A DNA stretch of 64,000 bases from Candidatus Babeliales bacterium (GTDB lineage: Bacteria; Babelota; Babeliae; Babelales; JANWKD01): positions 64,001 to 128,000 of the forward strand of contig CAVXJH010000007.1 in assembly GCA_963762115.1 (NCBI GenBank), read 5' to 3'. The notes under the pieces are model-generated. The model saw only the letters and a list, made by a program, of their open reading frames with translations, had not been told where the DNA came from and searched no databases. This document shows, in pieces, positions 15,784 to 49,335 of this stretch. Both the position numbers and the translations under genes were made by a program. Position 1 is the stretch's first letter, and every line of letters begins with the position of its first letter.

Positions 15784-17400
15784 ATGCAAAATTCTTGGGT
15801 CGTGCTCATACCACCACTTCTTGTTCTTACTGCAGCTTTTGTTACTAAACGAGTATTGCTTTCACTCTGCTTGGGTATAATAACCGCTTGTTTTATCATA
15901 GCTGATCTTTCAGTGATCCATGCGGGATCCATTCTGATACAAAACTTGCAAAAACAGATATTCAATACTGACAATATATATACGTTTATCTTTCTTATTG
16001 CCTTAGGTTCTCTCATAGCATTATTAAGCCACACCGGCGGCACCACTGCCTATAGCACAATCATGGCCAAAAAAATTTCTGATGCAAAAAGTGCTGAATC
16101 AGCAAGCCTACTTTTATCATGCTTGTTGTTATTTGATGATTTTTTTAGCAGCATTACCGTTGGTTGCATTATGCGCCCACTCACCGATCGCTTTAAAATC
16201 CCCCGAGCAAAATTAGCTTTTTTAATTGATTCAATGGCAGCCCCTTTGGTTGTTCTTATTCCTGTTTCAAGTTGGATCGCCACCCTCACCATGCAACTGC
16301 ACAAATCTGGCATATCGCAAGATTTATCTGATAACCCTTTAATTCTTGCTGATCCATTTTCATTATATTTGCACATTATTCCTTATATTTTTTACTCATT
16401 TATTATTATGGCATCTGTTTTATTTATTGTACGCAAACGCATTTCTTTTGGACCCATGCACAAACAAGAAGCAATTGCACAAAAAACGGGCAATCTTTAT
16501 GGCGGTAAAAAACCATCAAAAAATATCGATAAAAATTACTGCCCTGTTGATCATGGTTCATTAATCGATTTCTTTTTACCAATTGGCTTATTATTATTCT
16601 CAGTATTTTCAGCAATTTTATATGCTGGCAAGTATCATCTTTTTGGCGGCAATCATTCATTATTAAAAGCATTAGCATCAACTGACATTTTTTTTGCGCT
16701 CTGCACCGGCACCGTATTTACGCTGATTACCAGTTTTATATTTTTTTTGATTAAGAAAAAAATGCATTTAAAAGATATTTTATCATTAATCAAAGAAGGC
16801 GTTCAACTTATGGGTCCTTCTGTTGCTATTTTATTCTTTGCTTGGACATTCAGCAGCTTGCTTATTCATGATTTAAAAAGCGGTTCTTATTTGGCTTCGC
16901 TCGTTGTTGGCAATATCATACTCCCTTTATTGCCGTGCATTTTTTTCATAGTGTCAGCAATTACTTCGATTGCAATTGGTTCATCGTGGGGCACTATTGC
17001 CGTTATGGTCCCTTTAGCAACACCAATGCTTATACAATTACTCGGCATACAAACGCCCGCAACACCCGAACAGGTATATTTATTATTGCCTTTGCTTGGT
17101 GCTGCTTTTGCTGGTGCAATTGCCGGCGATCATATTTCGCCAATTTCCAGCACAACAGTTATGTCCTCAACCAGCAGCGGTGCATATCACACTGATCATG
17201 TGTATACACAATTTATGTATGCCTTACCAGCGTTAATTGCCACCATTATTGCCTATCTTATTGCCGGCTTTCTTGCAACTTACAGTAATGCTTTAAGTTT
17301 AATCGCATTACCAATTGGCATTATTTTGTCTTTAAGCATGCTTTATATAGTGAATATAATTGCTCATAAAAATGGCTCCAAAGCCGCCAAAATTGACTAA
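15784..17400 (+). CDS. NhaC-family (Na+/H+ antiporter / amino-acid transporter) membrane protein
   Basis: About 12 hydrophobic segments; FDDF, MRPLTDRFKIPRAKLAFLIDS.AAP, GSSWGT, GDHISPISSTT.SS motifs. Confidence 0.85.
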   Translation: MQNSWVVLIPPLLVLTAAFVTKRVLLSLCLGIITACFIIADLSVIHAGSILIQNLQKQIFNTDNIYTFIFLIALGSLIALLSHTGGTTAYSTIMAKKISDAKSAESASLLLSCLLLFDDFFSSITVGCIMRPLTDRFKIPRAKLAFLIDSMAAPLVVLIPVSSWIATLTMQLHKSGISQDLSDNPLILADPFSLYLHIIPYIFYSFIIMASVLFIVRKRISFGPMHKQEAIAQKTGNLYGGKKPSKNIDKNYCPVDHGSLIDFFLPIGLLLFSVFSAILYAGKYHLFGGNHSLLKALASTDIFFALCTGTVFTLITSFIFFLIKKKMHLKDILSLIKEGVQLMGPSVAILFFAWTFSSLLIHDLKSGSYLASLVVGNIILPLLPCIFFIVSAITSIAIGSSWGTIAVMVPLATPMLIQLLGIQTPATPEQVYLLLPLLGAAFAGAIAGDHISPISSTTVMSSTSSGAYHTDHVYTQFMYALPALIATIIAYLIAGFLATYSNALSLIALPIGIILSLSMLYIVNIIAHKNGSKAAKID

Positions 17401-17462
17401 TTTTAGTGATTCTTTATGATTAATAATGTTATATTGTCTTTTTTTCTAAGCTGAGGTTTTTT

Positions 17463-17903
17463 ATGAAAAAGCTTATTTTACCTTTGTTGATCTTATCAAG
17501 TAATTTGTTTGCTGATTTTCCTGAAGTAGCTAAAGAAGCTGATACACCTTGTGCACCTGAGGCATTTGCTGCAAATTATGACGGTGAAAGCATAAAACTT
17601 ATTAATGAATGTATCCGTCACGAGAACACGAACGCTTGTAGATTATTAGAAGTGCTTACTGAATTACAACAAGTTGAAGGCAAAATGCGATCACAAGGCA
17701 TAAGTACTCGTGTTGTACCAGCACTATCAAAATGCTTAAGTACTGATCCAGGAAATGCAACACATGAATGTAAAGCAGTAAAACTAGCACTGAGATGGCA
17801 TATGCTTTATAGTGAACTTAACAACAATCAACAATTTAAGCATTTTTCTAGATATTCGTTTCAAGATGATTTATTAAAACACACCAAAAAAGCTACAAAA
17901 TAA
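17463..17903 (+). CDS. Secreted Cys-containing hypothetical protein (paralog of 18147)
   Basis: Signal peptide MKKLILPLLILSSNLFA; GAGG RBS; L.NEC....N.NAC motif. Confidence 0.75.
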   Translation: MKKLILPLLILSSNLFADFPEVAKEADTPCAPEAFAANYDGESIKLINECIRHENTNACRLLEVLTELQQVEGKMRSQGISTRVVPALSKCLSTDPGNATHECKAVKLALRWHMLYSELNNNQQFKHFSRYSFQDDLLKHTKKATK

Positions 17904-17923
17904 CTCAATCAATGAGTATTGCT

Positions 17924-17960
17924 AAATCGGGAATTAAGTAAATAATTCCCGATTTTTTTT
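17924..17960 (+). terminator. Intrinsic terminator
   Basis: AAATCGGGAATTA-loop-TAATTCCCGATTT followed by a T run. Confidence 0.85.
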
Positions 17961-18146
17961 GCACAAAAATGCCTTCTTATAAATATCTTTTTCCAATTGG
18001 AATTTTATTGTCTTTAAGCATGTTTTATATAGTGAATATAATTGCTCAAAAAAAATGATTCCAAAGCCGCCAAATTTGACTAATTTTGGCGATTCTCTAT
18101 GATTAATAATGCTATAATGTCTTTTTTTTCTAAATTGAGGTCTTTT

Positions 18147-18485
18147 ATGAAAAAGCTTATTTTACCCTTATTATTACTAGTATCTGGTAGTTTGTTTGCA
18201 GAACATACCCTTAATGATCACATTCAAAAGCATCATGCAACACCAGCTCAATGCGAAACGTGCCAAGAAACTTCGTTGTTAAAAGAATGTGTACAAGGAA
18301 ACAACAAAGCTTGCAAAACGTTGTTACTAAAAGCATACCAACGTCATTTTAATACTAACGAAGCAGTAGTACTCACTCTATTTCTTAAAGATCAAATACT
18401 AGAAAATATAAAACGAAAAAAAGCTGTCTCTGACGCCATTTCCCCAAATGAATCACTACCTACAATGGACCAATCAGACAAATAA
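18147..18485 (+). CDS. Secreted Cys-containing hypothetical protein (paralog of 17463)
   Basis: Start reassigned to MKKLILPLLLLVSGSLFA; LLKEC...NNKAC motif. Confidence 0.75.
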   Translation: MKKLILPLLLLVSGSLFAEHTLNDHIQKHHATPAQCETCQETSLLKECVQGNNKACKTLLLKAYQRHFNTNEAVVLTLFLKDQILENIKRKKAVSDAISPNESLPTMDQSDK

Positions 18486-18507
18486 TCATTCACTTATAAA
18501 ACTTGCT

Positions 18508-18545
18508 AAATCGGGAATTATTTACTTAATTCCCGATTTTTTTTT
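18508..18545 (+). terminator. Intrinsic terminator (copy of 17924-17960 with the loop inverted)
   Basis: Same stem as 17924-17960, followed by a T run. Confidence 0.85.
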
Positions 18546-18633
18546 GCACAAAAATACCTTTTTCTAATCATCTTTTTCCTATATACTTTCATCAATTGAT
18601 AATGCACAAACAAAACATTGAAAGTAAATTTTT

Positions 18634-19056
18634 ATGAACACCACAAAAAAAATAGTTATCATATTCGCTCTTCTTATTCTTCAACAAAACATACAAGCAG
18701 ATCCTGCATTGAATTCAATTGCTAATAAGCTTGAACGTGCCCTAACAGGTCCATCAAATAATGATCGACGCGTTGTTGCATTAACAGCAATTGGTGCAGG
18801 TGTTGTAATAACTGGTTTATGTTTAACAATAATTGGTGGCTATAGAGCTGCAAATGGTAAACCACAAAAAGAAGGTTCTGAAAATGAACCAATAGTTACT
18901 AATGTTGTAACTGACGGCATCGCACGCCTCAGCGGCTTTGGCACGGCACTATTAGGAATTTTATGCACTGTTGGCGGCAGTGCAACAATTGTTTTGGCTA
19001 AAGAAGCAATCTTTAGATTGCAAAGCTTAATGGATCAACATCGAATAGATTGTTAA
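18634..19056 (+). CDS. Exported protein with two Gly/Ala-rich hydrophobic segments
   Basis: Signal MNTTKKIVIIFALLILQQNIQA; hydrophobic VVALTAIGAGVVITGLCLTIIGG and LSGFGTALLGILCTVGGSATIVLA. Confidence 0.7.
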   Translation: MNTTKKIVIIFALLILQQNIQADPALNSIANKLERALTGPSNNDRRVVALTAIGAGVVITGLCLTIIGGYRAANGKPQKEGSENEPIVTNVVTDGIARLSGFGTALLGILCTVGGSATIVLAKEAIFRLQSLMDQHRIDC

Positions 19057-19060
19057 AAAT

Positions 19061-19109
19061 ACTAAAGGGCACTACAATAATTTTGACGAATTATTTAGTG
19101 CCCTTTAGT
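19061..19109. terminator. Long hairpin between convergent genes
   Basis: ACTAAAGGGCACTA...TAGTGCCCTTTAGT inverted repeat. Confidence 0.7.
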
Positions 19110-19133
19110 CTGCATTTTATTAAAATCTAATTT

Positions 19134-20438
19134 CTACTCTTCTTCAAACTGATATTTCATCATCGCTTCAATATCATCAGCCGTTTTTGGTAAATTTTCA
19201 CTCAAACAAACAACACCATCATCGATCACCCAATAATCATCTTCAATACGAATTCCAAGGGATTCTTCAGGAATATAAATGCCGGGTTCAATAGTAAAAA
19301 CATCACCTGCTGCAAGTGGTTCTGCATAACTACCAACATCATGAACATCAAGTCCTAAATAATGACCAATACCATGAATAAAATAATGACCATACCCCTT
19401 TTCATGCAAAAACTTTTTAGCCAAATGATTAAGTGATTCATCTTCATGTTCTTTATTTGAAAGCCACATGCCAGGCTTTGCAATACTTGCAATATATTCC
19501 TGTGTTTCCAAAACAAGATCATAAAGTTCGCGTTGCCGTTTAGTGAAAGCACCCGAAACAGGATACGTTCGCGTTATATCGGCACAATAATAATTAAACT
19601 GAGCGCCAATATCAACAACAACCAAATCGCCCGATTTAAGCGTTCCATTATTTGCATTATAATGCAAAACGGTCGAATTTTTACCCGAACCAACAATACT
19701 TGGAAAAGCAATCGTTCCACCTGAAGAAATAAAGGTATATTCTATGCCTGCTTGCACTTCATATTCAATCGCATTTGGTTTAATTAATCGTGCAGCTGTT
19801 TCATGAGCATCACTGGTTATATCAATTGCTTTATATAACAGCTCTAATTCATAATTTGTTTTTTTTCTTCGTAATTGAGCAACAAGATTTGCAATATCAA
19901 TGAGTGCAATTGATAGTGCCGGCAATAATTTTTCTATACGTTGTAACACAAATCGCTGATCAACATAGCCATATGATGACTCTGGATTAAAAACAAAGAG
20001 CTTTTGATCATCCCCAAGCCATTCTTGTATGGATTGTATCAAGTGAGAATATTGATTCTGAGAAAAAAATGGATGACACTGATATCCTTGGCATGGCTCA
20101 CCCAAATACTCAATACTATCAACACAAAGTTCCTGTGCCTTATGCTCTGATGGCTCAAGAGCGCCTTCAACCCATTTAGCTCGTTCTTTACCAAAATTTG
20201 GCACAAATAGAGTTACTTTGCCCGTAACAATATCAAGCGTTAATGCCGTTGCTGGCTCAGTAATACCCGTCAAATAATAAAATGATGGTTCTTGCCTGAA
20301 AGAAATCGTTTCTTGTTCAAAATTAGCAAACAAGAGAATATGCCCCTTGATACCAACATACTTATTTTTGACAAGAGTTATGAGTGCATTACGACGCTCT
20401 TTGAATACTGAAAAATTATGTTCATATAGTAATGGCAT
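19134..20438 (-). CDS. pepP: Xaa-Pro aminopeptidase (M24B)
   Basis: FRQEPSFYYLTG, LHY, DIG..YCADITRT.P, HGIGHYLGLDVHD, TIEPGIY, GIRIEDD. Confidence 0.93.
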   Translation of the reverse strand: MPLLYEHNFSVFKERRNALITLVKNKYVGIKGHILLFANFEQETISFRQEPSFYYLTGITEPATALTLDIVTGKVTLFVPNFGKERAKWVEGALEPSEHKAQELCVDSIEYLGEPCQGYQCHPFFSQNQYSHLIQSIQEWLGDDQKLFVFNPESSYGYVDQRFVLQRIEKLLPALSIALIDIANLVAQLRRKKTNYELELLYKAIDITSDAHETAARLIKPNAIEYEVQAGIEYTFISSGGTIAFPSIVGSGKNSTVLHYNANNGTLKSGDLVVVDIGAQFNYYCADITRTYPVSGAFTKRQRELYDLVLETQEYIASIAKPGMWLSNKEHEDESLNHLAKKFLHEKGYGHYFIHGIGHYLGLDVHDVGSYAEPLAAGDVFTIEPGIYIPEESLGIRIEDDYWVIDDGVVCLSENLPKTADDIEAMMKYQFEEE

Positions 20439-20726
20439 GAAAAACCCCTTTAGAAACCAAGAAATTATTTTTATCCAAAAGTATCCCAGCTAAAACGTAT
20501 TTTTGCAAATAAATTCATTTTTATTTAAAAAAGCAACTTTTTCCCTCTAAACAAAACTCTTGCTTTTTTAATTCCTATTTTAGTATTCTTATAGTAGGAA
20601 GCACCTTGCCAAAACAGTATATTTTATTGTACACAATGCAATTTGAATCTTAATAAATACATAGAATTCAAATAAAAAAGAGAAAAAAATCTAACTAACT
20701 CAACCTAGAAATCGAGAGGAAGCACC

Positions 20727-20957
20727 ATGAAAAAAAGAAATATAATCGGTTTTACCTTATTACTAACGGGGTTGTTTATCTTCCCTCTTATTGAAGCAAA
20801 AAAATGCCAAACACAAGAATGTGCGTACACAAAAATAAATTGTGAAGAATGCTGTAAAGCAAAAACAGGCGTTAGCCCTGAATGTTGCGCAGCATGTAAT
20901 AATTGTATGTTATATGATGATGGCGGAAGATCTGGCTGCAAAGACTTTCCTTCGTAA
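20727..20957 (+). CDS. Small secreted cysteine-rich peptide
   Basis: GAGGA RBS; signal MKKRNIIGFTLLLTGLFIFPLIEA; 10 Cys in the 52-aa mature part; own terminator. Confidence 0.75.
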   Translation: MKKRNIIGFTLLLTGLFIFPLIEAKKCQTQECAYTKINCEECCKAKTGVSPECCAACNNCMLYDDGGRSGCKDFPS

Positions 20958-20965
20958 AAAATAAG

Positions 20966-21000
20966 GGCGCTCACTAATATGGTGAGCGCCTACATTTTTT
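20966..21000 (+). terminator. Intrinsic terminator
   Basis: GGCGCTCAC-loop-GTGAGCGCC followed by a T-rich tract. Confidence 0.75.
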
Positions 21001-21065
21001 CAACTCAATTTGATACATTAAAAACATGAATTTAGCCTAAGAGAAATGACATTAAAATCGGCATT

Positions 21066-21232
21066 GTCATTGCGAGCCAACATTGTTGGCGTGGCAACCC
21101 AGCATATAAAATTCTTTTTATTTCTCCTAAATTAATTTGAATTTATTGATTCAATAAGTTTTAATTTTAGGGATTTCATTAATAAGAACATTATAATCTG
21201 GATCCCCACGGCACAATGTGCCTCGGGAAGAC
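21066..21232. repeat. Palindromic REP/RPE-like (MITE-like) element, copy 1
   Basis: Left arm GTCATTGCGAGCCAACATTGTTGGCGTGGCAACCCAG identical to 42830-42866; right arm CTGGATCCCCACGGCACAATGTGCCTCGGGAAGAC. Confidence 0.85.
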
Positions 21233-21291
21233 ATTTTGGGATATTTTGCTTCATTGATACGTTGATAATTTTTTTATCGAACTCGAACTAA

Positions 21292-21891
21292 TTAAAAAGG
21301 ACGACGCTCAGATAATGCTTTATATACCGTAAGGCGGTCCATAAACTCAAGAGAAGAACCAACAGGAACTCCTCGAGCCAAACATGAAACAACGATGGGA
21401 AACTTCTTAAGCTTACTGGCAATATAAGCCGCTGTAGCCTCACCTTCAGGTGTTTGATTGGTAGCAAGAATAACCTCTTTTACCGTATCATTAATACGCT
21501 GTAATAAATAAGGTGTCGTGAGATCTTCAGGCCCAATACCATCAAGTGGCGATATTACGCCACCAAGAACATGGTAAACCCCTTGATATCCGCCCGTCTT
21601 TTCAATACTCATAAGTTCTTGCCAAGTTTCAACAACACATATAACACTTTGATCTCTTTTAGAAGATGAACAAAAAAGGCATTCTTTAGTATTTTCTTTC
21701 CAGGTACAACATATTTGACAACGAACAATCTGCTCCTGAGCAGATAAAATTGCCTTACAAAATTGTTCTGCCTTCACTGCATCCATTGATAACAAATAAT
21801 TAGCAACGCGATACATGTTTTTTGAAGCCAAATAAGGCACTTGCTGCAAATGTTTTATTAAATGAGCTAATGGCGGCAATTGTTCAATCAT
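21292..21891 (-). CDS. recR: Recombination mediator RecR
   Basis: C4 zinc finger (CQIC..CLFC), ICVVE, YHVLGGVISPLDGIGPEDL, EGEATA, LARGVPVG. Confidence 0.95.
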   Translation of the reverse strand: MIEQLPPLAHLIKHLQQVPYLASKNMYRVANYLLSMDAVKAEQFCKAILSAQEQIVRCQICCTWKENTKECLFCSSSKRDQSVICVVETWQELMSIEKTGGYQGVYHVLGGVISPLDGIGPEDLTTPYLLQRINDTVKEVILATNQTPEGEATAAYIASKLKKFPIVVSCLARGVPVGSSLEFMDRLTVYKALSERRPF

Positions 21892-23405: not shown

Positions 23406-23598
23406 ATAAACCCTTGATCTTGAAAACAACTTTATAAAGAAATCACTATTAAATAGTTATACTTTTTTGAATAATAATAGCTACTTAAGAGTAGCAAAGA
23501 ATATTCGTTTGATCCAGTACAAAAAAAGGAATGGATATATACAAAAAATAAATTTTACGTTATATAAAAAGGATATCTTAAAAGAGGAAGAGGTACTT

Positions 23599-23955: not shown

Positions 23956-24072
23956 TTTTATCGAGCATATTTCTCCATTCGCCTTGATCAAGACTCTTTC
24001 TCAATTTGTACAACAGAAATAATTTTGTTATTTTGTAACAATTAATCTGTAAATAAAAATCGGGAAATAAGC

Positions 24073-31293: not shown

Positions 31294-31457
31294 CTCTAAT
31301 TACCTTAAAAGACCTGGCTATCATATTCTGATAATCTTAACATAATTTCTCACATTTCTCAATTGAGAATAATTCTGTTAAACTACTTTATAATAAGCGA
31401 ACTAAAATACAACGTAATTCCTCTTTCGTTTCGCATTACCCTAATTTGGAAATTTTT

Positions 31458-32564
31458 ATGGCAAAAACAGCACATCATTTATCAAAGTACCGTCCAAACA
31501 TTCTTCTTGTAGGCATTCATGCTCCCTATAATCATACCCCTGATATTAATGCTTATTTTGAAGAATTCATTAATCTCGTAAAATCTAACAACATTGAATT
31601 TGATGAAGTAGTTTTCTTTAAGTTGCGAGAAATTGACGCCGGAACCTTTATTCAAAAAGGTAAACTCGAACAATTATTTGAACTTTGCGAAAAACATGAC
31701 ATTGATGAAGTTATTATTTCTGAACCAATTTCACCGCAACAAGAACGTAATTTACGCGATCACTTGCATAGAAAAGTTTTTGATAGAACACAACTCATTT
31801 TAGAGATTTTTGAAAAGTCAGCTCATTCAGCTGAGGGTAAAACTCAAGTACAGATTGCTATGTTACAACACAAAAAATCTCGCCTTTCTGGCAGAGGTGT
31901 TCATTTAGCGCAACAATCTGGCGCAGCAGGAACCATGGCCGGCGCTGGTGAAACAGCAAAAGAACGCGAACGCCGTCACATTGAAGATGATATTTTAAAA
32001 TTAAAAAAGCAACTTCTCAGAATTCATCAAACCCGCGATACGCAACGCAAACAACGTTTAACCCATGACGTTCCTTTAATGTGTTTAATTGGTTATACCA
32101 ATGCTGGCAAATCGACCATTTTAAATGCGCTTACTAAAAGTGATGTTTTAGCCGAAGATAGATTGTTTGCTACGCTTGATACAACAACGCGACAATTATT
32201 CATTAATGGGAAAAAGAAAGGCGTCCTTTCTGACACTGTTGGCTTTATTCAATTGCTTCCACCAAAATTAATTGAAGCATTTAAATCAACACTCATGGAA
32301 TTACAATATGGAGATTTGTTGCTTCATGTAGTTGATATCGCTGATCCTAACTGGGAAAATCATATTCATGTTGTTGAGCAAATTTTAGAAGATTTAGAAG
32401 TTGAAAAGCCGACACTCTATATTTTCAACAAGGTTGATAAGATCACTGTAACACCTGCCTTACAGGATTTAACTGATAAATATCAGCCGCATGTTTTTGT
32501 TTCTTCAAAAACTAAAGAAGGATTAAAGCCTCTTATTGATTATATTGAACACTGGGAATTATAA
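31458..32564 (+). CDS. hflX: GTPase HflX
   Basis: DRTQLILEIF, GYTNAGKST, LFATLDTT, SDTVGFI, NKVD. Confidence 0.95.
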   Translation: MAKTAHHLSKYRPNILLVGIHAPYNHTPDINAYFEEFINLVKSNNIEFDEVVFFKLREIDAGTFIQKGKLEQLFELCEKHDIDEVIISEPISPQQERNLRDHLHRKVFDRTQLILEIFEKSAHSAEGKTQVQIAMLQHKKSRLSGRGVHLAQQSGAAGTMAGAGETAKERERRHIEDDILKLKKQLLRIHQTRDTQRKQRLTHDVPLMCLIGYTNAGKSTILNALTKSDVLAEDRLFATLDTTTRQLFINGKKKGVLSDTVGFIQLLPPKLIEAFKSTLMELQYGDLLLHVVDIADPNWENHIHVVEQILEDLEVEKPTLYIFNKVDKITVTPALQDLTDKYQPHVFVSSKTKEGLKPLIDYIEHWEL

Positions 32565-32582: not shown

Positions 32583-32986
32583 CATAAGGCTCTTCCAAAA
32601 TAGTTTTTAGTTTACTAGAGTAACTATCAGAGCATTCAATAATCATTTTTTCTAATAAAGGAAGTATTTTTATGAAGAAATTCTTTTATCTCGGTTTTAT
32701 TGTATTTTCTATGATTTCAAGCTCAAAAAGCAATTGTATGTCTAAAGAAAATAAAGTGTCTCATGAAGAAGCAAGAACCGCCACGACAACACTTATTCGC
32801 TATTTTATGCAAAAACAAGAAAATAAACACATTAAGAACATGGTACGTGATGCCTATGCCATATCAAAAATAGGTCTAAAAGATGGCGAAAAGATTAAAG
32901 CTGCTCTCTGATTATATTTAATACTACCATGCTGCATCATAAAGACTCTTCCAAAATAGTTTTTATTTTACTAGAGTAAAAATCAG
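32583..32986 (+). repeat. Direct repeat of an upstream promoter block (32583-32630 and 32938-32986; weaker third copy ~34013-34051)
   Basis: CATAAgg/agaCTCTTCCAAAATAGTTTTTAg/tTTTACTAGAGTAA..ATCAG lies upstream of consecutive paralogs. Confidence 0.8.
32672..32911 (+). CDS. Short secreted protein, probably a truncated paralog of 33025
   Basis: MKKFFYL signal...CM; EA..T..RY....M...YA..K...K..EK pattern shared with 33025. Confidence 0.6.
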   Translation: MKKFFYLGFIVFSMISSSKSNCMSKENKVSHEEARTATTTLIRYFMQKQENKHIKNMVRDAYAISKIGLKDGEKIKAAL

Positions 32987-33024
32987 TTCATCTAATAACC
33001 ACTTATACTCTAAGGAGTGTTCTT

Positions 33025-33930
33025 ATGAAGAAGTTTCTCTATCTTAGCTTAACCGGCTTAATGGTTTTAAGCACAACAACACGTTGCATGGAACAAATTA
33101 TTAAAGCCGATGAAGAAGCACAAAAAGATGGAAGTGTGCAAACAATAATCTTAGAATCAGAAAATGCATTAAAAGTACAGGGACCACAATTACCAGCAAA
33201 AAAAGAAGTGATTCAAGCGTTCTTGGAAGCCTATGTTGTTGTCTCAACGATGGGCCGTTATGGCGTTGCATCATCAGAACCATTTGCAATAATGAAGGAA
33301 TCATACGCCACCGTTAAGGCCATTAACAAAGGTGATAAAGAAAAAACACGATTAGAATTATTTGATGGCTATTGCAGTGCTGATGAAGAATATTATGAAA
33401 AAGGACTTGACGACGAAGAAAAAACCGCTCAAAAAATTAAAGCTATTGACTCACTCGTAGCATTAAGATATCAATCAAAACTTAATGACAATCAAAAAAA
33501 ACATGCCGCATTAATGCAAAGAAAAGAAGAACTAACTAAAACTATTAAAGAATTACTCAATAAAAAAACCGCTATTCAAGAAAAATTGCGTGAAAAAGAA
33601 GAAGAAAAATCGCTTCTTGAAAAGGTTAACGCCATGCATCATAACTCTAAAGAACAAGAAAACTCCTTACTTCGTTCGCGCAAAGAAACATTAACTGAAG
33701 AAATAAAAGCTATTGATGAACGCATTGCAAAACACAAAGAAGAATCTAATGCTTTACTTGAAGGTGATGTAATGCAAAGCGTGGTTGCAGATGCTATAAA
33801 AGACCATTCCGATGTTGAAGCTGGTCTTTTAGAAAAAAAAGCAGAATTACAAGCAAAATTCGATAAAATTAATGCTGTTATTGAAAAGCTAGAAATACCA
33901 AAGACTGGTTGGTTTGGTAATTGGCTATAA
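33025..33930 (+). CDS. Secreted coiled-coil protein
   Basis: AAGGAG RBS; signal ...TTRC|ME; long heptad-rich C-half; ends TGWFGNWL. Confidence 0.8.
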   Translation: MKKFLYLSLTGLMVLSTTTRCMEQIIKADEEAQKDGSVQTIILESENALKVQGPQLPAKKEVIQAFLEAYVVVSTMGRYGVASSEPFAIMKESYATVKAINKGDKEKTRLELFDGYCSADEEYYEKGLDDEEKTAQKIKAIDSLVALRYQSKLNDNQKKHAALMQRKEELTKTIKELLNKKTAIQEKLREKEEEKSLLEKVNAMHHNSKEQENSLLRSRKETLTEEIKAIDERIAKHKEESNALLEGDVMQSVVADAIKDHSDVEAGLLEKKAELQAKFDKINAVIEKLEIPKTGWFGNWL

Positions 33931-34095: not shown

Positions 34096-35445
34096 ATGAA
34101 GATTTTATATTCCACCCTTGCATTATTATTATATATAAACGCGCCATTATACTGCATGGAAGAAGAACAAAGGCAACTCGGCTTTCCATCTTCTAGTAAT
34201 AATAATGATGCGGATATTTCTGAGTTCTTCTTAGCTGATGCTGCAGAACAAAGCGGCGTCCCTTTAAAACGAACGCATACTAAAGGCCCTTCAACAATTT
34301 TTATGGAACGTGTTGACACACACAATCATGAAGAAGCAAGCGACATAACAACAGGCTTTTTTGCAATGCCAACAAAAGAGGCGGGAAGCGATGAATACGC
34401 ACAAGAAGACGTAGATAATGATCCAACTGAAAAAAAATCTACAATATTGATAACAAAAATATTTGAAGAACATGTAATTCCACAATCCAACGAAAATAAC
34501 AATAATCAAGGACCACAAATGACTCCCTTGATTCCACAATTATTTGATAAAATCGAAGATCATAAACAAAAAAGCAATTTTTCTTGGACAAAGATACTTG
34601 AAATATTTAAAGCTGATGATGAACGACAAAAAGAATTACTCGGTGATAATAATTTATCAGAAGTTATTTCCAGGTCACAGAACGAAACTTTAAAAGTATA
34701 TTATTCTAGCCTTGCACATCTTGGAGAATTGACAGAACTTTTCTGGATCTTAAAAAGCAAATTATCAAAAATGCCTATTGAGGAAAAGAAACTGTCGGTT
34801 GAATTTGAGCATAAAAACTACATATATGCGGGCATAATTAAAAGATGCAGTAACAATAAAGAAGAAGCAAAAGCACTCTTATTAGGAGTCGCTGATTATG
34901 AAAGTGACGAAGAAAAAATTATTGATGGCGATCTAGAAAATGATGAACCTGGTGTATATCGTTTATCAAAAAACATTTTGACCTATGCATTACCAGCTTT
35001 GACAAAACGAATAAATGAAAATCAAGCATCTGTTGATAGTTCTATACAAGAAAAAGAGCTCATAGATAATAAAATAGCTGTATTAGAAAAGCAAAAACAA
35101 GAAGTTTTAGCAAAATTAAATCAAGAACTCACCAATAAACGACAATTAAAACAAGCAGAATTGATCATTAAACAAGAAAGAGAAACCCAAAGAGAATATT
35201 TATTAAGAAAACAAGCAACATTAAAAAAAGCTATAGTTTTTCTAGAAGATAAAATTAATGATTTATCACATCAAAGCGAAGAAGCAGTACTACAACAAGC
35301 AAATGACAAAAAAATATTATTAAACAAACAAAAAAAAGCAACCGAAGAACAACTGAGCAAAACAAAATTAATATTAGCTGATCTTGAAAAAAATTTAAAA
35401 AATTTTGATACTCCAACTGGCTACAAGCTTTGGAGAGGAAAATAA
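34096..35445 (+). CDS. Secreted coiled-coil protein with disordered acidic N-region
   Basis: AAGGAG RBS; signal ...PLYC|ME; coiled-coil C-half; ends TGYKLWRGK. Confidence 0.8.
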   Translation: MKILYSTLALLLYINAPLYCMEEEQRQLGFPSSSNNNDADISEFFLADAAEQSGVPLKRTHTKGPSTIFMERVDTHNHEEASDITTGFFAMPTKEAGSDEYAQEDVDNDPTEKKSTILITKIFEEHVIPQSNENNNNQGPQMTPLIPQLFDKIEDHKQKSNFSWTKILEIFKADDERQKELLGDNNLSEVISRSQNETLKVYYSSLAHLGELTELFWILKSKLSKMPIEEKKLSVEFEHKNYIYAGIIKRCSNNKEEAKALLLGVADYESDEEKIIDGDLENDEPGVYRLSKNILTYALPALTKRINENQASVDSSIQEKELIDNKIAVLEKQKQEVLAKLNQELTNKRQLKQAELIIKQERETQREYLLRKQATLKKAIVFLEDKINDLSHQSEEAVLQQANDKKILLNKQKKATEEQLSKTKLILADLEKNLKNFDTPTGYKLWRGK

Positions 35446-40069: not shown

Positions 40070-40089
40070 TCTATGAATTCCTGCTCATG

Positions 40090-41421: not shown

Positions 41422-41435
41422 TCCTACGTTATTTA

Positions 41436-42645: not shown

Positions 42646-42829
42646 TAACTCCTTTTTATGCTTTTGAACTTCTTTTTATCATTACTCTAGAAAAAGTTTT
42701 TACTTTTGAATAGCACCGATCATTTTTTTGATAAAAAATTAGAAAAAGCTTTTTTATCAGTTATTATTATTCATAAGAATTCGATATACAAATTTAATGA
42801 TATTGGTTGATAATTAAAATAATCAAAAT

Positions 42830-42997
42830 GTCATTGCGAGCCAACATTGTTGGCGTGGCAACCCAGATTATAATGTTCTCTATAAAAAAACATTATAAAA
42901 AAGCCACTAAATCGTTGGTTTAATCAACAACTCAATGAAATAATAAATAGAATTCTATTTTACTGGGTTGCCACGGCACAATGTGCCTCGCAATGAC
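42830..42997. repeat. Palindromic REP/RPE-like (MITE-like) element, copy 2
   Basis: GTCATTGCGAG..CGTGGCAACCCAG / CTGGGTTGCCACG..CTCGCAATGAC perfect terminal inverted repeats, each with an internal hairpin. Confidence 0.88.
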
Positions 42998-43093
42998 ATT
43001 TCCGACTACCTTAATTATCGTACAATTAGTTTATCACATGCATCGAATGCATTTATTACTCAGTACATAACCTCTTACCATGGAATAATAACA

Positions 43094-44098
43094 ATGAACA
43101 AAAAACAAATTATTTTAACCGGCGATCGCCCAACAGGCCCATTACATCTTGGTCATTATGTTGGTTCCCTAGCAAATAGAGTTGCCTTGCAAAAAGATCA
43201 TACGCAATTTGTTATGATCGCGGATGCGCAAGCACTCACTGATAATTATGAACATCCTGAAAAAATTCACGATGCCGTATTCCAAGTTGCTCTTGATTAC
43301 CTTGCTGTAGGCATTGATCCTCAACTCAGCACTATTTTTATTCAATCTATGATTCCTGCACTTGCTGAGTTAACTTTATATTATTTAAATCTTGTTACCG
43401 TTAACCGCCTGCGAAGAAATCCAACGGTAAAAACTGAAATTCATCAAAAAGGATTAGAAGAACATCTTCCTGCTGGTTTTTTAATGTATCCCGTCAGTCA
43501 AGCTGCTGATATAACAGCATTCAAAGCTACCTTAGTACCTGTTGGCGAAGATCAAATTCCTATGATTGAACAAACCAACGAAATTGTGCGCACTTTTAAC
43601 CGCATTTATAAAACTGCAGCATTAGTTGAAACGCAAGCATTAGTTCCACAATTTGCCCGATTGCCCGGTATGGATGGAAAAGCAAAAATGAGTAAATCAT
43701 TGGGAAATGCACTCTACCTTTCCGATTCACTTGAATCGGTACAACAAAAAATAAAACAGATGTATACCGATGCAACTCACCTGAAAATCAGCGATCCAGG
43801 AAAAGTAGAAGGTAATGTGGTGTTTTCATACCTTGATGCTCTTGATCCTGATAAAGCTTCCGTTGCCGCGCTCAAAGAACAATATCAACGCGGTGGTCTT
43901 GGTGATATGACTATCAAAAAAAGATTATTTGAAGTGTTAGAATCTTTTCTAAAACCAATACAGGAACGCAGAAAGGCATTAGAACACGATCGCACGTATG
44001 TTATGTCCATTTTGCAAAAAGGAACTGCCCATGCAAATGATATTGCCGAGAAAACATTAGATGAAGTAAAATCTGCCATGCATTTACATTATTTTTAG
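43094..44098 (+). CDS. trpS: Tryptophan--tRNA ligase
   Basis: Start reassigned to [42 protein letters not shown]. Confidence 0.96.
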
Positions 44099-44180
44099 AA
44101 CAATCTTGCGATTCTTCCCTTTTTTATATTTTTTTTGCTAGAGTAGAAAAAATAGTATAAAAAATTAAGGGGAAATAGGT

Positions 44181-44771
44181 ATGACACAGCAAAAAAAAAC
44201 ATCTTCATATACCATTGGCATTGGATTGTTTTTATTTATACTTTTAATTATTACTTGCATTGCTTACTGGCAACAAGTTCGTTTATTTCCCGAGCAAATG
44301 ATGTCAAATGATATCAATCAACTCGCTATGATTTTTAATAAAATTAATGATACCTGTGGCATTCTTGATTTTCAATCTGACCATACTGAAGTTGATTTTT
44401 TAAATGTCATCGCCTTTAAAGGTTCAGAAGTCGGCGCAATGAACTTAAAATTTTCTTCAAAATGGGAAGGCCCCTACGTAAGAGATAATCCTACCATTCA
44501 AGAAAAACACTACCAAATTGTTAAAACTAAAAAGGGCTACTTTATTATTCCTGGCAATGGCGTTGCCTTAAAAAATGGCCTAGTTATAGGAAAAGATATC
44601 ATTATTGATAAAAATACCGATATTACCGAGCTTATACGAAATAAATCATTAGTTGATTCGGCCGGTAAGCCTTTAGCCCTGCCCATACCTACCCTTAATC
44701 TGCCCTCATCCATCCTTCTAGAAGACCTCTTTATGTATGCCTCCCATAAATTACCCTTTTTAAGGGCTTAA
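44181..44771 (+). CDS. Membrane-anchored protein, possibly pseudopilin (GspG)-like
   Basis: Basic N-terminus + hydrophobic helix, DINQL...CG helix, WEGPY motif. Confidence 0.45.
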   Translation: MTQQKKTSSYTIGIGLFLFILLIITCIAYWQQVRLFPEQMMSNDINQLAMIFNKINDTCGILDFQSDHTEVDFLNVIAFKGSEVGAMNLKFSSKWEGPYVRDNPTIQEKHYQIVKTKKGYFIIPGNGVALKNGLVIGKDIIIDKNTDITELIRNKSLVDSAGKPLALPIPTLNLPSSILLEDLFMYASHKLPFLRA

Positions 44772-44965
44772 TAGAGACGTTACAGGTTAAAAGGCCTGTT
44801 TAAACCTATAAAAAACGACCTTTTTAGAGGGTCAATACCTATCAATTTTTAACCTAAAATTAATTTTCTTATTGCAATTATTTTTTATCGATATATACTT
44901 ATTTTATATAAACATAATTCTATTATTGATTTTTTTTATAGCTAAAAAAACAGGAGTTTTAAGCG

Positions 44966-46717
44966 ATGTTAAACAAAAAACTACTTTTATCAATTATTTT
45001 TTCATGCCTCACTTATTCAGGCATGCAGGCTATGGAGGCTTTGTCATTGGAAGAACCTAAAGAAAATGAAGCACACGTTCTTAACGATAATGATATAGTC
45101 ACTATTCAATTAACCTACAATTTTAAACAAGAAAAAGAATATGATAAAACAATGTATCAACCTAAAGATAATGACGATTATAACATCAATTACGAGGTAA
45201 CAGTACCATATAAAATTATTAAAACATGTTCGTTATTACGACGTGATATCTCTCATGAAAATACCATTATCACCATTCCTGCCACCGATATTTCTATAGA
45301 AATGTTTAAATTTATTTTAGATTTGCTCAATATATATTCCGATGATCAATTAACAAATGAGATCAAAATACAAAAAATACACGAATTAATAAAAAACAAT
45401 GAAGAAAAACTTTTTCAATTACTTGATGCAGCTAATTATTTGAATTGTGAACCAATCTATAATGCAGCGAGTCATATTATGACACAAAAACTTGAAAGCT
45501 TAATTTTTGAAAAAAATAATTTGGCAGAAGCTCTTGCATTAGCAAAATACATCAAAAAGAAAACCAATCATTATTACAAAATATTTGAATATTTATGTGA
45601 TACTTCAAAATATAAAACTGAAATCAAAGCAATTGTTAAATCAATACAAGCGTTGGAAGAAACTGAAATTATTAATTCAATATGCTTTTCTCCAGATAAT
45701 AAAACACTTGCTTATACACGTATCCCAAACGATACCGCCATAAAACTCTGGAACATTAGCAATGATGAACACTCATCAATGCCAAAAATAGATAATTTTA
45801 ACATCGGGTCAATCAATTTTTCTCATGATGGCACAAAAATCGCTTCAGGTTCTTGGAATGGCAACATAAAAATATGCGATGTAAATTCAGAAACCTGTTT
45901 AATCGATCTACAAGGACATACAACTTGGGTAACTTCAATATCTTTTTCTCATGATGATACTAAACTTGCATCTGCTTCTCATGATAACACCATAAAAGTA
46001 TGGGATGCTAAAACGGGTGAATGCATATCTACTTTCCAAGAAAATGATCGAGTTCTCTCAGCCTGTTTTTCACCTAATAGCAAAATTCTTGCTTCAGCTT
46101 CCAAAAATTTTATAAAATTATGGGAAGTTTCATCGGGGAAACAGCTACAAATCCTTAATGGTCATAACAATGAAATTAGGAACATTTGTTTTTCCCCAGA
46201 CGGCACAACAATTGCTTCATCTTCTCTAGATGCAACGGTAAAAATATGGGATACATCTTCTGGAAATCTTTTAAAAACTTTAGAGGGCCACAAAAGATCC
46301 ATACCTTCTGTTTGCTTTTCTCCTGATGGCACAATAATTGCTTCCGGTTCTTTCGATAGAACAATAAAAATATGGGATGCGTCTTCTGGAAAATACTTAC
46401 AAACGATCAAAGATACCGGCCAAGTTCGCGCCATGTGCTTTTCTTCTGATGGCAAACTTGCTAAAGGATGTAATGAAAAAAATATACAGATTTTTACTTT
46501 TCATGATCTCAAGAAAGAGTTCAATCTTTCTACTTTACTATTGCTTGAATATTTGATGTATCATAAGGAACATAATTCATTACCAGCATTATCACAACTT
46601 GATCCATCCATGCAAGGATTATTCTTGTTGTTACCAGAAGCATTCCAAAAAATGTTTACCGATATGCCTGCAACTAACGATGTTCCCACAACAAAGTCTA
46701 ACTGCTTAGTTAGTTAA
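44966..46717 (+). CDS. Secreted Skp1/BTB-POZ-like + 7x WD40 protein with a C-terminal CaaX box
   Basis: AGGAG RBS; signal ...GMQA|ME; LFQLLDAANYLN; seven WD40 repeats (e.g. GH..V.S..FS.D...LASAS.D.TIKVWD); ends CLVS. Confidence 0.85.
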   Translation: MLNKKLLLSIIFSCLTYSGMQAMEALSLEEPKENEAHVLNDNDIVTIQLTYNFKQEKEYDKTMYQPKDNDDYNINYEVTVPYKIIKTCSLLRRDISHENTIITIPATDISIEMFKFILDLLNIYSDDQLTNEIKIQKIHELIKNNEEKLFQLLDAANYLNCEPIYNAASHIMTQKLESLIFEKNNLAEALALAKYIKKKTNHYYKIFEYLCDTSKYKTEIKAIVKSIQALEETEIINSICFSPDNKTLAYTRIPNDTAIKLWNISNDEHSSMPKIDNFNIGSINFSHDGTKIASGSWNGNIKICDVNSETCLIDLQGHTTWVTSISFSHDDTKLASASHDNTIKVWDAKTGECISTFQENDRVLSACFSPNSKILASASKNFIKLWEVSSGKQLQILNGHNNEIRNICFSPDGTTIASSSLDATVKIWDTSSGNLLKTLEGHKRSIPSVCFSPDGTIIASGSFDRTIKIWDASSGKYLQTIKDTGQVRAMCFSSDGKLAKGCNEKNIQIFTFHDLKKEFNLSTLLLLEYLMYHKEHNSLPALSQLDPSMQGLFLLLPEAFQKMFTDMPATNDVPTTKSNCLVS

Positions 46718-46743
46718 CAAGCAAAATAAATAATTTTAAACAG

Positions 46744-46777
46744 AAAGAGCCGTGTTATATATAACACGGCTCTTTTT
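46744..46777. terminator. Bidirectional intrinsic terminator
   Basis: AAAGAGCCGTGTTATATATAACACGGCTCTTT palindrome. Confidence 0.85.
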
Positions 46778-46787
46778 ATGCTAATTT

Positions 46788-46880
46788 TTATAAAAAATTG
46801 AGAAAGAAATGTTCGAAATATGGCGAAATGCCATTTTTAATATTCCAATCAATTGTTGTAATTTGATTATGCGCACTTTT
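46788..46880 (-). pseudogene. Displaced or duplicated 3' end of the holA-like gene (30 codons + stop)
   Basis: Translates KSAHNQITTIDWNIKNGISPYFEHFFLNFL*; 48397-48492 translates KNAHDQITTIDWNIKNGISSYFEHFFLNFFK*. Confidence 0.92.
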
Positions 46881-46928
46881 ATTAAACACGCTTTTTTCTT
46901 TTTATAATTTTTATTCTCAATTTTTCAA

Positions 46929-47270
46929 TTAAAAATTTAGTTGTTCTTGTAACTTTAACCAATACTGTTCAAGTTTTTGATACATTACATGCTCTTTGTC
47001 TTTACGATTGCCAAACGATGTGCATTGAGTCGTTTCATTGTTAATAGGATAACTCATCCAACCAGAATACGATACAGATCCCTTTTCTTTATCTACACAT
47101 TTACTAACAACAAGTTCTGCTCTTTTTTCTTCATTTGTTTGAGTAAGAACTTCACGCACACATAATGTATCTTCATCAGTTTCTTTAGTTACCTTACCAC
47201 CACATTCCATGGCTGATGCCGAAAAAAATAAACCTAAACTAATACTCAACATTGCACTATATAGTTTCAT
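46929..47270 (-). CDS. Small secreted protein, paralog family member 1
   Basis: MKLYSAMLSISLGLFFSASA|MECGGKVTK..E.LTQ..YSG..KLE..W..L. Confidence 0.8.
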   Translation of the reverse strand: MKLYSAMLSISLGLFFSASAMECGGKVTKETDEDTLCVREVLTQTNEEKRAELVVSKCVDKEKGSVSYSGWMSYPINNETTQCTSFGNRKDKEHVMYQKLEQYWLKLQEQLNF

Positions 47271-47307
47271 AGTATTCCTTATGTTTGCATTACCATGATA
47301 AAATTTA

Positions 47308-47667
47308 TTATTCTACTTGAGAGTTTAAATCGTCCCAAAGACTCTCAAGCTTTTTATGATTTTCGTCTGTCATTTCATTAAAATCACCTAAACACTTTTG
47401 CTTCATGATTGGCTCACCTTCACTCTCATCTTTTTCAATTTTATCATAAACCTCTACGCCAGAATATGCTGCAAATTTCGTCTCTTGATTAATTCTCTTA
47501 GTCACACAAAGATATGTCCCATCTTCAGTATTTTCTTGCGTAAGAATTTCATATACGTATGATGTATCTTCATCAATTGATTTAGTTACTTTACCACCAC
47601 GATGCATAGCTGATGCCGAAAAAAATAAACCTAAACTAATACCCAACATTGCACTATATAGTTTCAT
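47308..47667 (-). CDS. Small secreted protein, paralog family member 2
   Basis: Near-identical signal peptide; GGKVTK, EILTQ, YSG, LGDF, KLESLW. Confidence 0.8.
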   Translation of the reverse strand: MKLYSAMLGISLGLFFSASAMHRGGKVTKSIDEDTSYVYEILTQENTEDGTYLCVTKRINQETKFAAYSGVEVYDKIEKDESEGEPIMKQKCLGDFNEMTDENHKKLESLWDDLNSQVE

Positions 47668-47680
47668 AGTATTTCCTTTG

Positions 47681-47797
47681 TTAAATTAGGACTTGAATGC
47701 ATGCGTTTAATTCTAATCAAAGAACTTCCAAATTTATAGCATGTTCACCTGGATCTTTTTTTTTAATCATTTCACCACCAAAACAACGTTTTATTTT
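47681..47797 (-). pseudogene. C-terminal remnant of a fourth paralog
   Basis: KIKRCFGGEMIKKKDPGEHAINLEVL*LELNACIQVLI* resembles the family C-terminus (C/W-L-G...LE.LW.ELN) with TGA at the Trp position. Confidence 0.6.
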
Positions 47798-47833
47798 AGC
47801 AGAATAAAAAAAAATAACTTTAATATGAACGCT

Positions 47834-47880
47834 AAAAAGAAAAGAGGCGTGCTCTTATAAAGCACGCCTCTTTTCTTTTT
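47834..47880. terminator. Intrinsic terminator
   Basis: AAAAAGAAAAGAGGCGTGCT-loop-AGCACGCCTCTTTTCTTTTT. Confidence 0.85.
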
Positions 47881-47906
47881 ATAATTTTTATTCTCAAACT
47901 TTTAAA

Positions 47907-48275
47907 TTAAGATTTTATTTGAGAATTTAATTCTGACCAAAGAGTTTCAAGTCTTTTATAACCATCACTTGTTTTATCATCAAAATCGCCTAACCATGTT
48001 TGATTAATTCCAGACAAAATATCATATGTTGAAGTTTTTTCATCATAAAACAAATCGCCAATTATACCGGAATATGATAATGCTTTTGTTTCTTTATTTT
48101 CTCGTTTACTAATAAAAAGATACTTTTGTTCTTGGTCATTTTTTTGAGTTAAAGTTTCACGTATAAATTTCTTTTCATCTTGTATCTTCTTAGTTACTTC
48201 ACCACCGCACGTCATGGCAGATGCCGAAAAAAATGAACCTAAACTAATACCCAAAATTGCAATATATAACTTCAT
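47907..48275 (-). CDS. Small secreted protein, paralog family member 3
   Basis: MKLYIAILGISLGSFFSASA|MTCGGEVTK, ETLTQ, YSG, LGDF, RLETLW. Confidence 0.8.
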   Translation of the reverse strand: MKLYIAILGISLGSFFSASAMTCGGEVTKKIQDEKKFIRETLTQKNDQEQKYLFISKRENKETKALSYSGIIGDLFYDEKTSTYDILSGINQTWLGDFDDKTSDGYKRLETLWSELNSQIKS

Positions 48276-48396
48276 AGTATTCCTTTTAATTATAAAGATT
48301 ATTCTTTAGTCAATGTTCATTGAACATCACATGGGAAAAATATCACTAAAATCTAAAAACTTCAAGAAACGATTAATTAAAGATGCACATTACAAT

Positions 48397-49335
48397 TCAT
48401 TTAAAAAAATTGAGAAAGAAATGTTCAAAATAGGAAGAAATACCATTTTTGATATTCCAATCAATGGTAGTTATTTGATCATGTGCATTTTTAAGTTCAA
48501 TCAAATTCACACTTCGCCAATCTTTCTGCACAAAAGAAAAAGGAAGGCGAAACGCACTTTTTTTTGCTTGCGCAAAGTCTTTTTTTTGCATTAATTCAAC
48601 AAAACAATAAGCACGAAAAAGTTGTTCAGACCAGTAGGTCGTCCAAAAAACATCGCCATAATCATCTTTAATGGCATGCCAAAGTTTAAAAAATTCTCGA
48701 TCTTGTTTTGCAAAAAAATAGCTACTCAAAGTAAATAACGATTTTTCTGGCACCATAAGCGCATCAAATAACTCTGCAACGTCACCATCAATTTTAGAAC
48801 CTAACACAAGTGCATAGTTCATCAATAAACATGCATTCTCAAGTGAAAGAAATTTATATTTTCTAAAAAACGAAAGCACAACCTGGCTTTTAGCCTTAGT
48901 GGCATATTCAGGAAAAAATAATGAAAATAATTGTATATATAATTCAAGATCAATATCATTGGGAAGCTCTACAGCGTGAATTTTGGCAATTAATGGTTTG
49001 TCAGTAAAAAAATGTAATGTATGCGGCCCTTCATACTGCTCAAAATAACTTTGCAAGTTTAATTGTTGTTTAGCATCAAGACCAATAAAATCAGTAAGCC
49101 AGTAAAAATAATTTGTTCCCAAGAATGACATTTCTAAATGCGATTTATAAGAAAGATCGTGCACAATATTTTCACAATCTAATGATTGAATTATATATTC
49201 ATTTTTTTTGTACACTTGTTTTAAATGATAAAAAAATAGTGCGGGATATTTTTTACCTACAAAGCAAAAAACTGGCGGTAGTTTCCTACTTCCAGTTTTA
49301 TCAGGTAATATGCTAAGAAATGCAATAAAATCCAT
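48397..49335 (-). CDS. holA: Probable DNA polymerase III delta subunit (divergent)
   Basis: 312 aa; pattern VFCFVG..., SFLG...(cf. SLFG), ...FTL...F, terminal D..IKNG typical of delta; 3 bp downstream of rph. Confidence 0.55.
   Translation of the reverse strand: MDFIAFLSILPDKTGSRKLPPVFCFVGKKYPALFFYHLKQVYKKNEYIIQSLDCENIVHDLSYKSHLEMSFLGTNYFYWLTDFIGLDAKQQLNLQSYFEQYEGPHTLHFFTDKPLIAKIHAVELPNDIDLELYIQLFSLFFPEYATKAKSQVVLSFFRKYKFLSLENACLLMNYALVLGSKIDGDVAELFDALMVPEKSLFTLSSYFFAKQDREFFKLWHAIKDDYGDVFWTTYWSEQLFRAYCFVELMQKKDFAQAKKSAFRLPFSFVQKDWRSVNLIELKNAHDQITTIDWNIKNGISSYFEHFFLNFFK

Follow-up and report, generated by a model that had tools for sequence, protein, structure and literature searches.

Why does the 3′ end of a housekeeping gene recur downstream of a run of genes for putative exported proteins? 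The question is raised by a 64,000-nucleotide stretch of the genome of a Candidatus Babeliales bacterium (the window, G000:C7:64001-128000; window coordinates are given without a prefix below), where a preliminary description noticed second copies of the gene end at an NhaC-family gene, at hflX and at a holA-like gene. All three repeats are real, and we detected the same arrangement, a core-gene tail displaced downstream by additional genes, across the genome. The source genome (G000) comprises 1.53 Mb in 7 contigs; the nearest whole genome compared with it (G001) has a median protein identity of 68%. Gene calls in G000 (1488 genes) were made by our own heuristic, and signal-peptide-like proteins were judged by eye and by our own hydrophobicity heuristic. 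The Babeliales phylum parasitises protists, according to abstracts of published work, and the organism studied here is likely a protist parasite.

Gene-end copies across the genome

The last 150 nt of each gene of at least 450 nt was used to seek a same-strand, non-coding copy in the 12 kb downstream. Such a copy was detected for 25 of 1074 gene ends in G000 and for none of 1074 mid-gene windows, while 5′ windows gave 4 copies downstream and 5 upstream. Eight of the 25 rows were excluded (seven genes form one tandem paralogue array, and one gene is internally repetitive), which left 23 tail copies, belonging to 17 genes at 16 loci. By Pfam and NCBIfam assignment the anchors encode PriA, YdjM, RsmG, Maf, a PASTA protein, GpsA, a DAO-family protein, TruA, TamB, AspS, a beta-lactamase-family protein, MurB, a peptidylprolyl isomerase (PPIase), RodA/FtsW, an NhaC-family protein, a holA-like protein and one protein without a family, and 13 of 16 have a G001 match of at least 40%. 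Searching with whole genes brought two more tails to light, a second one of maf and a metallophosphoesterase tail of 174 nt. The displaced-tail observation is confirmed, and the enrichment of core-gene end fragments that the preliminary description led one to expect extends genome-wide, beyond the window.

The same scan of G001 found copies at 8 of 946 ends (one row is actually a maf 5′ copy) and at no mid-gene window. Samples of 300-400 kb were scanned in each of three further genomes: G004 gave 3 of 271 ends, one of them an overlap artefact; G003 gave 3 of 261 ends, but also 2 mid-gene matches from a repeat family; and G020 gave 2 of 289 ends, both from one paralogue family, plus 1 mid-gene match. 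In six 50-kb stretches of E. coli K-12, chosen by hand, none of 219 gene ends had a copy.

Among syntenic orthologues of G000 and G001, tails were found at 0 of 479 3′ ends where the junction has no extra genes and at 8 of 198 where it has extra genes (mid-gene control, 0 of 384). Tails are thus confined to junctions of varying gene content, and the scar marks variable junctions. The downstream content of holA, nhaC, hflX and tamB differs across G001-G004 and L133, so that the variation among relatives foreseen for the three window loci was found. A check for a gene's own tail in short flanks found it for holA in 1 of 29 cases (G002), for tamB in 1 of 27 (G000 itself), for nhaC in 0 of 6 and for hflX in 0 of 5; most of these flanks were about 1.5 kb long, a length at which G000's own holA copy was missed.

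Anatomy and codon signal of the tail copies

The right edge of the homology lies no more than 6 nt from the stop codon in 15 of the 23 copies, and the left edge ranges from -34 to -148. The repeats are 34-174 nt long and 78-97% alike, with inserts of 0.6-6.3 kb and up to three tails per locus. At four loci (maf, PASTA, DAO-family and holA) the copy is succeeded by the same gene that succeeds the intact one in G001, and G001, another species, has a single tail with this ancestral neighbour at all four; the copy therefore occupies the old junction.

Mismatches between copy and gene fall mostly at third codon positions (105 of 556, vs 52 of 544 at first and 28 of 552 at second positions). The pooled ratio of non-synonymous to synonymous divergence (dN/dS) is 0.20 (bootstrap 0.11-0.32), whereas simulation of an exact duplicate with one copy evolving neutrally gave 0.40 (0.30-0.55; lowest of 200, 0.27). 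Strongly synonymous copies are those of tamB, priA, aspS, the DAO gene, holA and the first of rodA; in tamB tails 1 and 2 the differences from the gene, 3 and 6 respectively, are all synonymous. The edge at the stop codon, the mostly synonymous differences and the ancestral neighbour behind the copy suggest, from sequence comparison, that the copies are likely displaced former gene ends.

The cargo between gene and tail was supposed to consist of secreted paralogues, and this specificity was not supported. Cargo proteins are signal-peptide-like in 23 of 29 cases, far more often than core-gene products (234 of 760) and not significantly more often than the products of the remaining accessory genes (382 of 583; p=0.16). 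At 8 of the 16 loci the cargo starts with a gene on the opposite strand. Cargo types scanned comprise exported proteins without a family, WD40 proteins, a nucleotidyltransferase-HEPN pair and a phosphotransferase-like protein; the cargo includes a toxin-antitoxin pair. No integrase or transposase was found among the scanned proteins of the window and the loci, which include part of the cargo, and the recombinases of the genome map to other places. No restriction-modification gene turned up among those of the 29 cargo genes that were scanned; the PPIase locus has a 929-aa/360-aa pair outside that scan. Conserved cassette borders, described as general together with highly diverged mature domains, were seen at nhaC, hflX, the holA array and the maf array and not at most loci, and the mature parts of the holA cassettes are still recognisably related.

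The holA locus

Among the three window loci, only holA is a clean insertion. The holA-like core gene (48397..49335, minus strand) is matched in 29 of 31 genomes searched; its label comes from a sub-threshold NCBIfam match (expectation value, E, 0.003), with no Pfam match. Three paralogous cassettes follow on the same strand, encoding 122 aa (cassette 1, 47907..48275), 119 aa (cassette 2, 47308..47667) and 113 aa (cassette 3, 46929..47270), with a mutual identity of 44-48% over the whole length. Cassette 3 ends in half of the cassette 1 terminator, joined to the displaced holA tail (46787..46881, minus strand), which has its own in-frame stop. The last ~95 nt of holA and this copy are 86% identical (E 2e-25; protein 84% over 31 aa, E 2.5e-12) and differ by 9 synonymous and 3 non-synonymous changes. 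A terminator-like hairpin (46744..46775, no strand assigned) lies between the displaced tail and a convergent WD40-repeat gene (44966..46717, plus strand), whose reciprocal best hit in G001 (29%) ends 5 nt past the holA stop, so that holA abuts a WD40 gene in G001 also.

Of 12 differing sites, the working holA end agrees at 6 with the relative L133, in which cassette 1 is likewise present, and the copy at 2 (hand count); at one site only, the displaced tail and G001 share a proline, and the working gene and L133 a serine. The cassette 1 counterpart after holA in L133 (L133:7013-7381) is interrupted by an in-frame stop, reflecting decay or a sequencing error. G002 carries an independent 35-nt holA tail with its edge at the stop, around a different gene of 448 aa. 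No member of the holA cassette family turned up in 150 further genomes belonging to the order, nor in viral contigs; two outside relatives were detected. Reads from four DNA runs over window positions 42900-52300 gave only short contigs, with no joint across any cassette. One strain in these reads, at ~90-98% identity, spans cassette 1 as well as a cassette-3-like piece, and a 19-nt loose end in one contig weakly suggests that ~150 nt are missing between its cassettes 1 and 2.

A proposed route of insertion

The best explanation, to which we give somewhat better than even credence from the sequence patterns above, is that recombination anchored in the core gene displaced the resident tail, the far end being joined illegitimately or the fragment passing through a circular intermediate. 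Donor DNA from a related lineage would carry a core-gene end and its own downstream genes, and one homologous crossover would take place inside the resident core gene. The far end would be joined with almost no homology, or the fragment would first be circularised, potentially by Ku, and enter by a single crossover. The incoming allele would become the working gene end, the gene and its neighbour would both be kept intact, and the resident's old tail and old neighbour would be pushed downstream. The tail copy could then act as a repeat for amplification, loss and further transfer by ordinary recombination, giving arrays of up to three tails; long repeats would probably collapse, and short diverged ones would remain. 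A dedicated enzyme would be unnecessary. The cargo would be drawn from the lineage's ordinary accessory pool, mostly exported proteins, and may act on the protist host.

Genes for uptake and recombination are present: ComEC, DprA, a ComM-like protein and Ku are encoded in all five genomes checked, as is MutS. Identity declines with distance from the gene at tamB (97/94/88), rodA (89/79) and C3_93774 (92/89), and does not at priA (84/91) and maf (83/93). The decayed state of the inner maf tail (83%) relative to the outer one (93%) points to the arrival of an older array in one block, and is expected if a ready-made array entered. At the PASTA/gpsA locus a gpsA-end piece abuts a PASTA-end piece head to tail with ~1 nt of overlap, the PPIase/metallophosphoesterase locus is arranged similarly, and maf in G001 has copies of both the 3′ and the 5′ flank; at such two-flank loci the incoming piece apparently spanned one conserved neighbour into the other.

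Several points weigh against anchored displacement. The scar stands on only 9 of 192 variable junctions (~5%), and a donor together with an empty site was not seen in any single species, the closest whole genome standing at 68%. MutS should hinder recombination between diverged alleles, and it is present. The bootstrap and null intervals of dN/dS overlap slightly, and no synonymous bias is evident at C3_93774 (1 synonymous and 13 non-synonymous differences over two copies), rsmG, truA, gpsA and nhaC; such a bias is also expected from a frozen duplicate beside a core gene that recombines with other strains. A mosaic tail, with a decayed 5′ half and a clean 3′ half, was not seen (non-synonymous changes in 28 of 208 vs 29 of 218 codons; gapped, 7 vs 2), and the likeness of the two halves in non-synonymous changes argues against a continual refreshing of the tails.

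A bolder version, possible though clearly speculative, is that every housekeeping-gene tail acts as an integrase-free attachment site. Cargo with a short tail would be excised via the repeats, or closed by Ku/LigD after uptake, move between Babeliales that share a protist host and re-enter the same gene of a different strain, and a 29-nt arm at tamB (see below) would mark one circulating cassette family. If true, this would amount to a self-renewing, genome-wide traffic of effector cassettes, with the displaced tail as both scar and next anchor.

The nhaC and hflX loci and tandem duplication

The NhaC-family antiporter gene (15784..17400, plus strand, as are all features of this locus; PF03553, E 5e-40; G001 orthologue 78%) opens an array with a more extended repeat. 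Its last 93 nt (17308-17400) are 89% identical to 17990-18083, with one 1-nt insertion (E 3e-29; 2.5 synonymous and 5.5 non-synonymous differences). The repeat extends 115 nt past the stop through promoter, ribosome-binding site and signal peptide, the first copy of the unit (17308..17515) covering -93 to +115 around the stop and the second tail copy (17990..18083) being followed by the same promoter and leader. Cassette A (17463..17903) encodes a signal-peptide-like protein of 146 aa without Pfam family or G001 match and is followed by a terminator-like hairpin (17919..17960). Cassette B (18147..18485; 112 aa) has a leader near-identical to that of A and a mature part that is barely alignable; its terminator and the end of the repeated unit occupy 18503..18582, and the paired terminators (17919-17960 and 18503-18544) are 90% alike. 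The third gene (18634..19056), for a 140-aa signal-peptide-like protein, is not a paralogue of A and B and is the ancestral neighbour (G001 reciprocal best hit, 41%). Each array was expected to hold two to four paralogous signal-peptide genes; only two of the three after nhaC are paralogues, and the cargo as a whole is not all paralogous.

After hflX (31446..32564, plus strand; TIGR03156 above cut-off) come three genes on the same strand, all for signal-peptide-like proteins: a 79-aa gene without a G001 match (32672..32911; our own call gave its last 57 aa), a 301-aa gene (33025..33930; G001 counterpart 42%) and a 449-aa gene with a related leader (34096..35445; G001 counterpart 39%). Between the first two lies an element (32864..33009, plus strand) composed of a decayed hflX-tail remnant (32864-32925) and a duplicated promoter (32942-33009, 82% like 32586-32653). 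The likeness of the remnant to 32505-32553 is weak and gapped, and the hflX end nevertheless ranks first of 1066 gene ends against this target (score 41, next 36). The G001 orthologues of the third gene after nhaC and of the 301-aa and 449-aa genes mark these as older residents; cassettes A and B, the 79-aa gene and the three holA cassettes are specific to G000 relative to G001.

With homology continuing past the tail into promoter and leader, the nhaC and hflX repeats have the look of tandem duplications, or of two alleles of a single slot united in tandem. The recombinase-independent accretion on core-gene ends that was first proposed stands in part: the genome-wide enrichment, the synonymous bias and the synteny fit it, but specificity for secreted paralogues was not supported and the three window loci are not uniform.

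Could local tandem duplication account for the whole pattern? A core-gene tail would be duplicated together with the next gene and kept for its promoter, and the paralogues would diverge or one of them be deleted or replaced. At nhaC, homology to +115, the common terminator, the lack of synonymous bias and a -35-like hexamer overlapping the stop (by a consensus that we assume) all fit, as do hflX, the inner repeat of maf and those G001 rows whose homology reaches +40, +52 and +159. Most loci, however, have unrelated genes before and after the copy, with homology ending at the stop; a convergent gene follows the copy at holA and at tamB copy 3, where a promoter is not needed; and the pooled dN/dS lies under the simulated null. 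Tandem duplication accounts for nhaC, hflX and the inner repeat of maf, and further loci might be due to it; as a general account we regard it as unlikely.

The tamB locus and site-specific elements

Cis-mobilizable elements (CIMEs) and the tandem accretion of integrative and conjugative or integrative and mobilizable elements at gene 3′ ends give integrase-less cargo between gene-end direct repeats, in tandem arrays; they depend on a cognate integrase and on a crossover site that is fixed. Decayed elements of this kind would have gene-end att sites, with the tail as attR and the integrase lost or acting in trans. Gene-restoring 3′ ends of integrative elements yield the same stop-codon edge and the same synonymous bias, and two unrelated tamB cassettes end in a common pseudo-palindromic arm of 29 nt (1 mismatch) directly before the displaced tail (G000:C6 ~79660-79690 and ~80515-80545). 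The genome also encodes two large serine recombinases.

Neither a cognate integrase nor a fixed crossover site was found at these loci, in contrast to CIMEs, and left edges vary within a locus (-99/-96/-59 for the three tamB copies, -54/-107 for rodA). A gene-specific integrase at displaced-tail loci was found neither in G000 nor in G001, the other genomes having been seen in short flanks only. At least 16 different sites would be required. G000 has only two tyrosine recombinases, with a similar pair in four relatives, so that they are probably XerC/D, and the serine recombinases reside in separate islands. No integrase lies at the window loci, as initially observed. The arm is shared, with its junction, by tamB copies 1 and 2 alone; with up to 6 mismatches allowed, it has no further occurrence in either G000 or G001, and no arm common across loci was noticed by eye. 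The tamB tail matches four times in G000, whereas a second match occurs in only 2 of 164 other matching genomes (201 searched), in one of them on a separate contig; with extra tails so rare, tamB does not look like a general site. In viral contigs no relative of the tail or of the holA cassettes was found. Decayed site-specific elements are accordingly improbable as the source of the pattern.

The arm was also considered as a chromosomal dif/Xer site and rejected: tamB lies at ~90 kb in G001, and the skew maximum with a dif-like match, to what we take to be the dif consensus, at 705-731 kb.

The two serine recombinases, with two 5′ fragments, are found in accessory-gene islands (G000:C5:155655-164195, C5:10499-10572 and C3:125844-127379), which apparently adjoin tRNA genes, as deduced from spurious open reading frame (ORF) calls. 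One of them is 95% identical to a G001 copy.

Relation to known systems

Insertion with long target duplication was reportedly described by Nobusato in 2000. In a later account (Furuta, Abe and Kobayashi 2010, PMC2853133), from which, as from the other papers cited here, we draw on portions of the text, the cargo is restriction-modification genes, the repeats of Table 2 are near-identical (44/46 to 47/47), a link to competence is noted and the mechanism is left open. Shared with our loci are direct repeats of more than 30 bp and of variable length, inserts below 20 kb, no integrase or transposase among the proteins scanned, and repeats that often span a stop or start codon. PMC2853133 also has an empty site in a relative, for which the single tails of G001, another species, are the nearest counterpart here, and many cases in naturally competent species. 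In contrast, most of the cargo here encodes exported proteins, repeat pairs match at 78-97% and carry a synonymous bias, a single genome of 1.5 Mb has 16 such loci, and there are three-tail arrays. Break-repair capture, a true long target duplication in which a nuclease cuts near the gene end, foreign DNA is captured and 40-150 nt of target are resynthesised, a scheme put forward for restriction-modification systems, is very improbable: it has this same geometry, with repeats often spanning start or stop sites (PMC2853133), and Ku is present, but identical repeats with neutral decay would be expected, unlike the synonymous-only tails at tamB, priA and aspS, and the scanned cargo has no restriction-modification gene.

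Displacement of Rhs C-termini (Jackson 2009, PMC2935791) and of effector-immunity modules, one after another, of Vibrio type VI secretion systems (T6SS; Kirchberger 2017, PMC5361080) is similar in that homology-anchored DNA shunts the old 3′ end downstream, with variable fragment length and array build-up, and a circle or homology-facilitated illegitimate recombination is proposed there, without an integrase. In Rhs, contact-dependent inhibition (CDI) and T6SS loci the anchor is the toxin gene and its tip is the variable cargo, whereas here unrelated housekeeping genes are the anchors, their tips are restored with hardly any change, and separate whole genes on either strand form the cargo. The minimal mobile elements of Neisseria (PMC3787668) also place variable genes between conserved flanks with homologous recombination in the flanks; those swap the content of a slot by two crossovers, with no tail duplication mentioned in the portion used, whereas here content is added and the old end kept. 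The nhaC, hflX and holA arrays may be like the lpl cluster of Staphylococcus aureus (PMC2568036), with tandem lipoprotein-like paralogues shuffled at a conserved stretch, which there lies inside the paralogues and here in the neighbouring core gene.

The system was at first called undescribed, which is too strong, the same geometry having been described (PMC2853133, PMC2935791). No paper describing the pattern in Babeliales was found in a search that was short on subscription papers and had supplements outside its scope. The displaced-tail pattern is a known kind of insertion scar in unusually many places, rather than a new enzyme system. Through it a reduced, host-dependent, recombinase-poor bacterium would have a concrete way to gain accessory, probably host-directed genes with its operons unbroken. 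The displaced tail is a datable, allele-bearing scar whose synonymous sites record the resident gene before the event; it makes the mechanism of long target duplication testable, as true duplication vs displacement of an allele. The end-versus-middle scan is a simple measure applicable to any genome.

Additional observations

In two cases the tail copy lies inside a cargo ORF (G001:C1:880999-884410 and G000:C3:553011-554443). The anchor of the former is gyrB-like by eye and the cargo gene terminates on the copied stop; displaced tails may donate C-termini to cargo genes. The 491-aa cargo behind the DAO-family gene (G000:C5:33639-35114) has a 74% orthologue in G001 ~2 kb further downstream, so this event relocated a local gene and was not an import.

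The mirror case, a 5′-end copy upstream of a gene, was seen a few times and is rarer than 3′ tails; examples are a recJ-like gene of G004 (G4a 253456-255177) and G000:C7:18983-20194. About 13 paralogous signal-peptide genes stand in tandem at G000:C6:349268-361607, with near-identical leaders, common 3′ ends and many stop-to-start overlaps.

Genes that are presumably rplC, tuf and fusA, named from their translations, appear split into several ORFs at window positions 8447-12715, and many such breaks occur in G004 also; these are probably assembly errors. A palindromic repeat of ~40 nt at 21065-21105 and 42829-42869 has 22 BLAST hits across the genome. It presumably resembles the repetitive extragenic palindromic (REP)-like elements that accompany small GIY-YIG nucleases, and small GIY-YIG-type ORFs, identified by reading their sequence, are present in the G000/G001 comparison.

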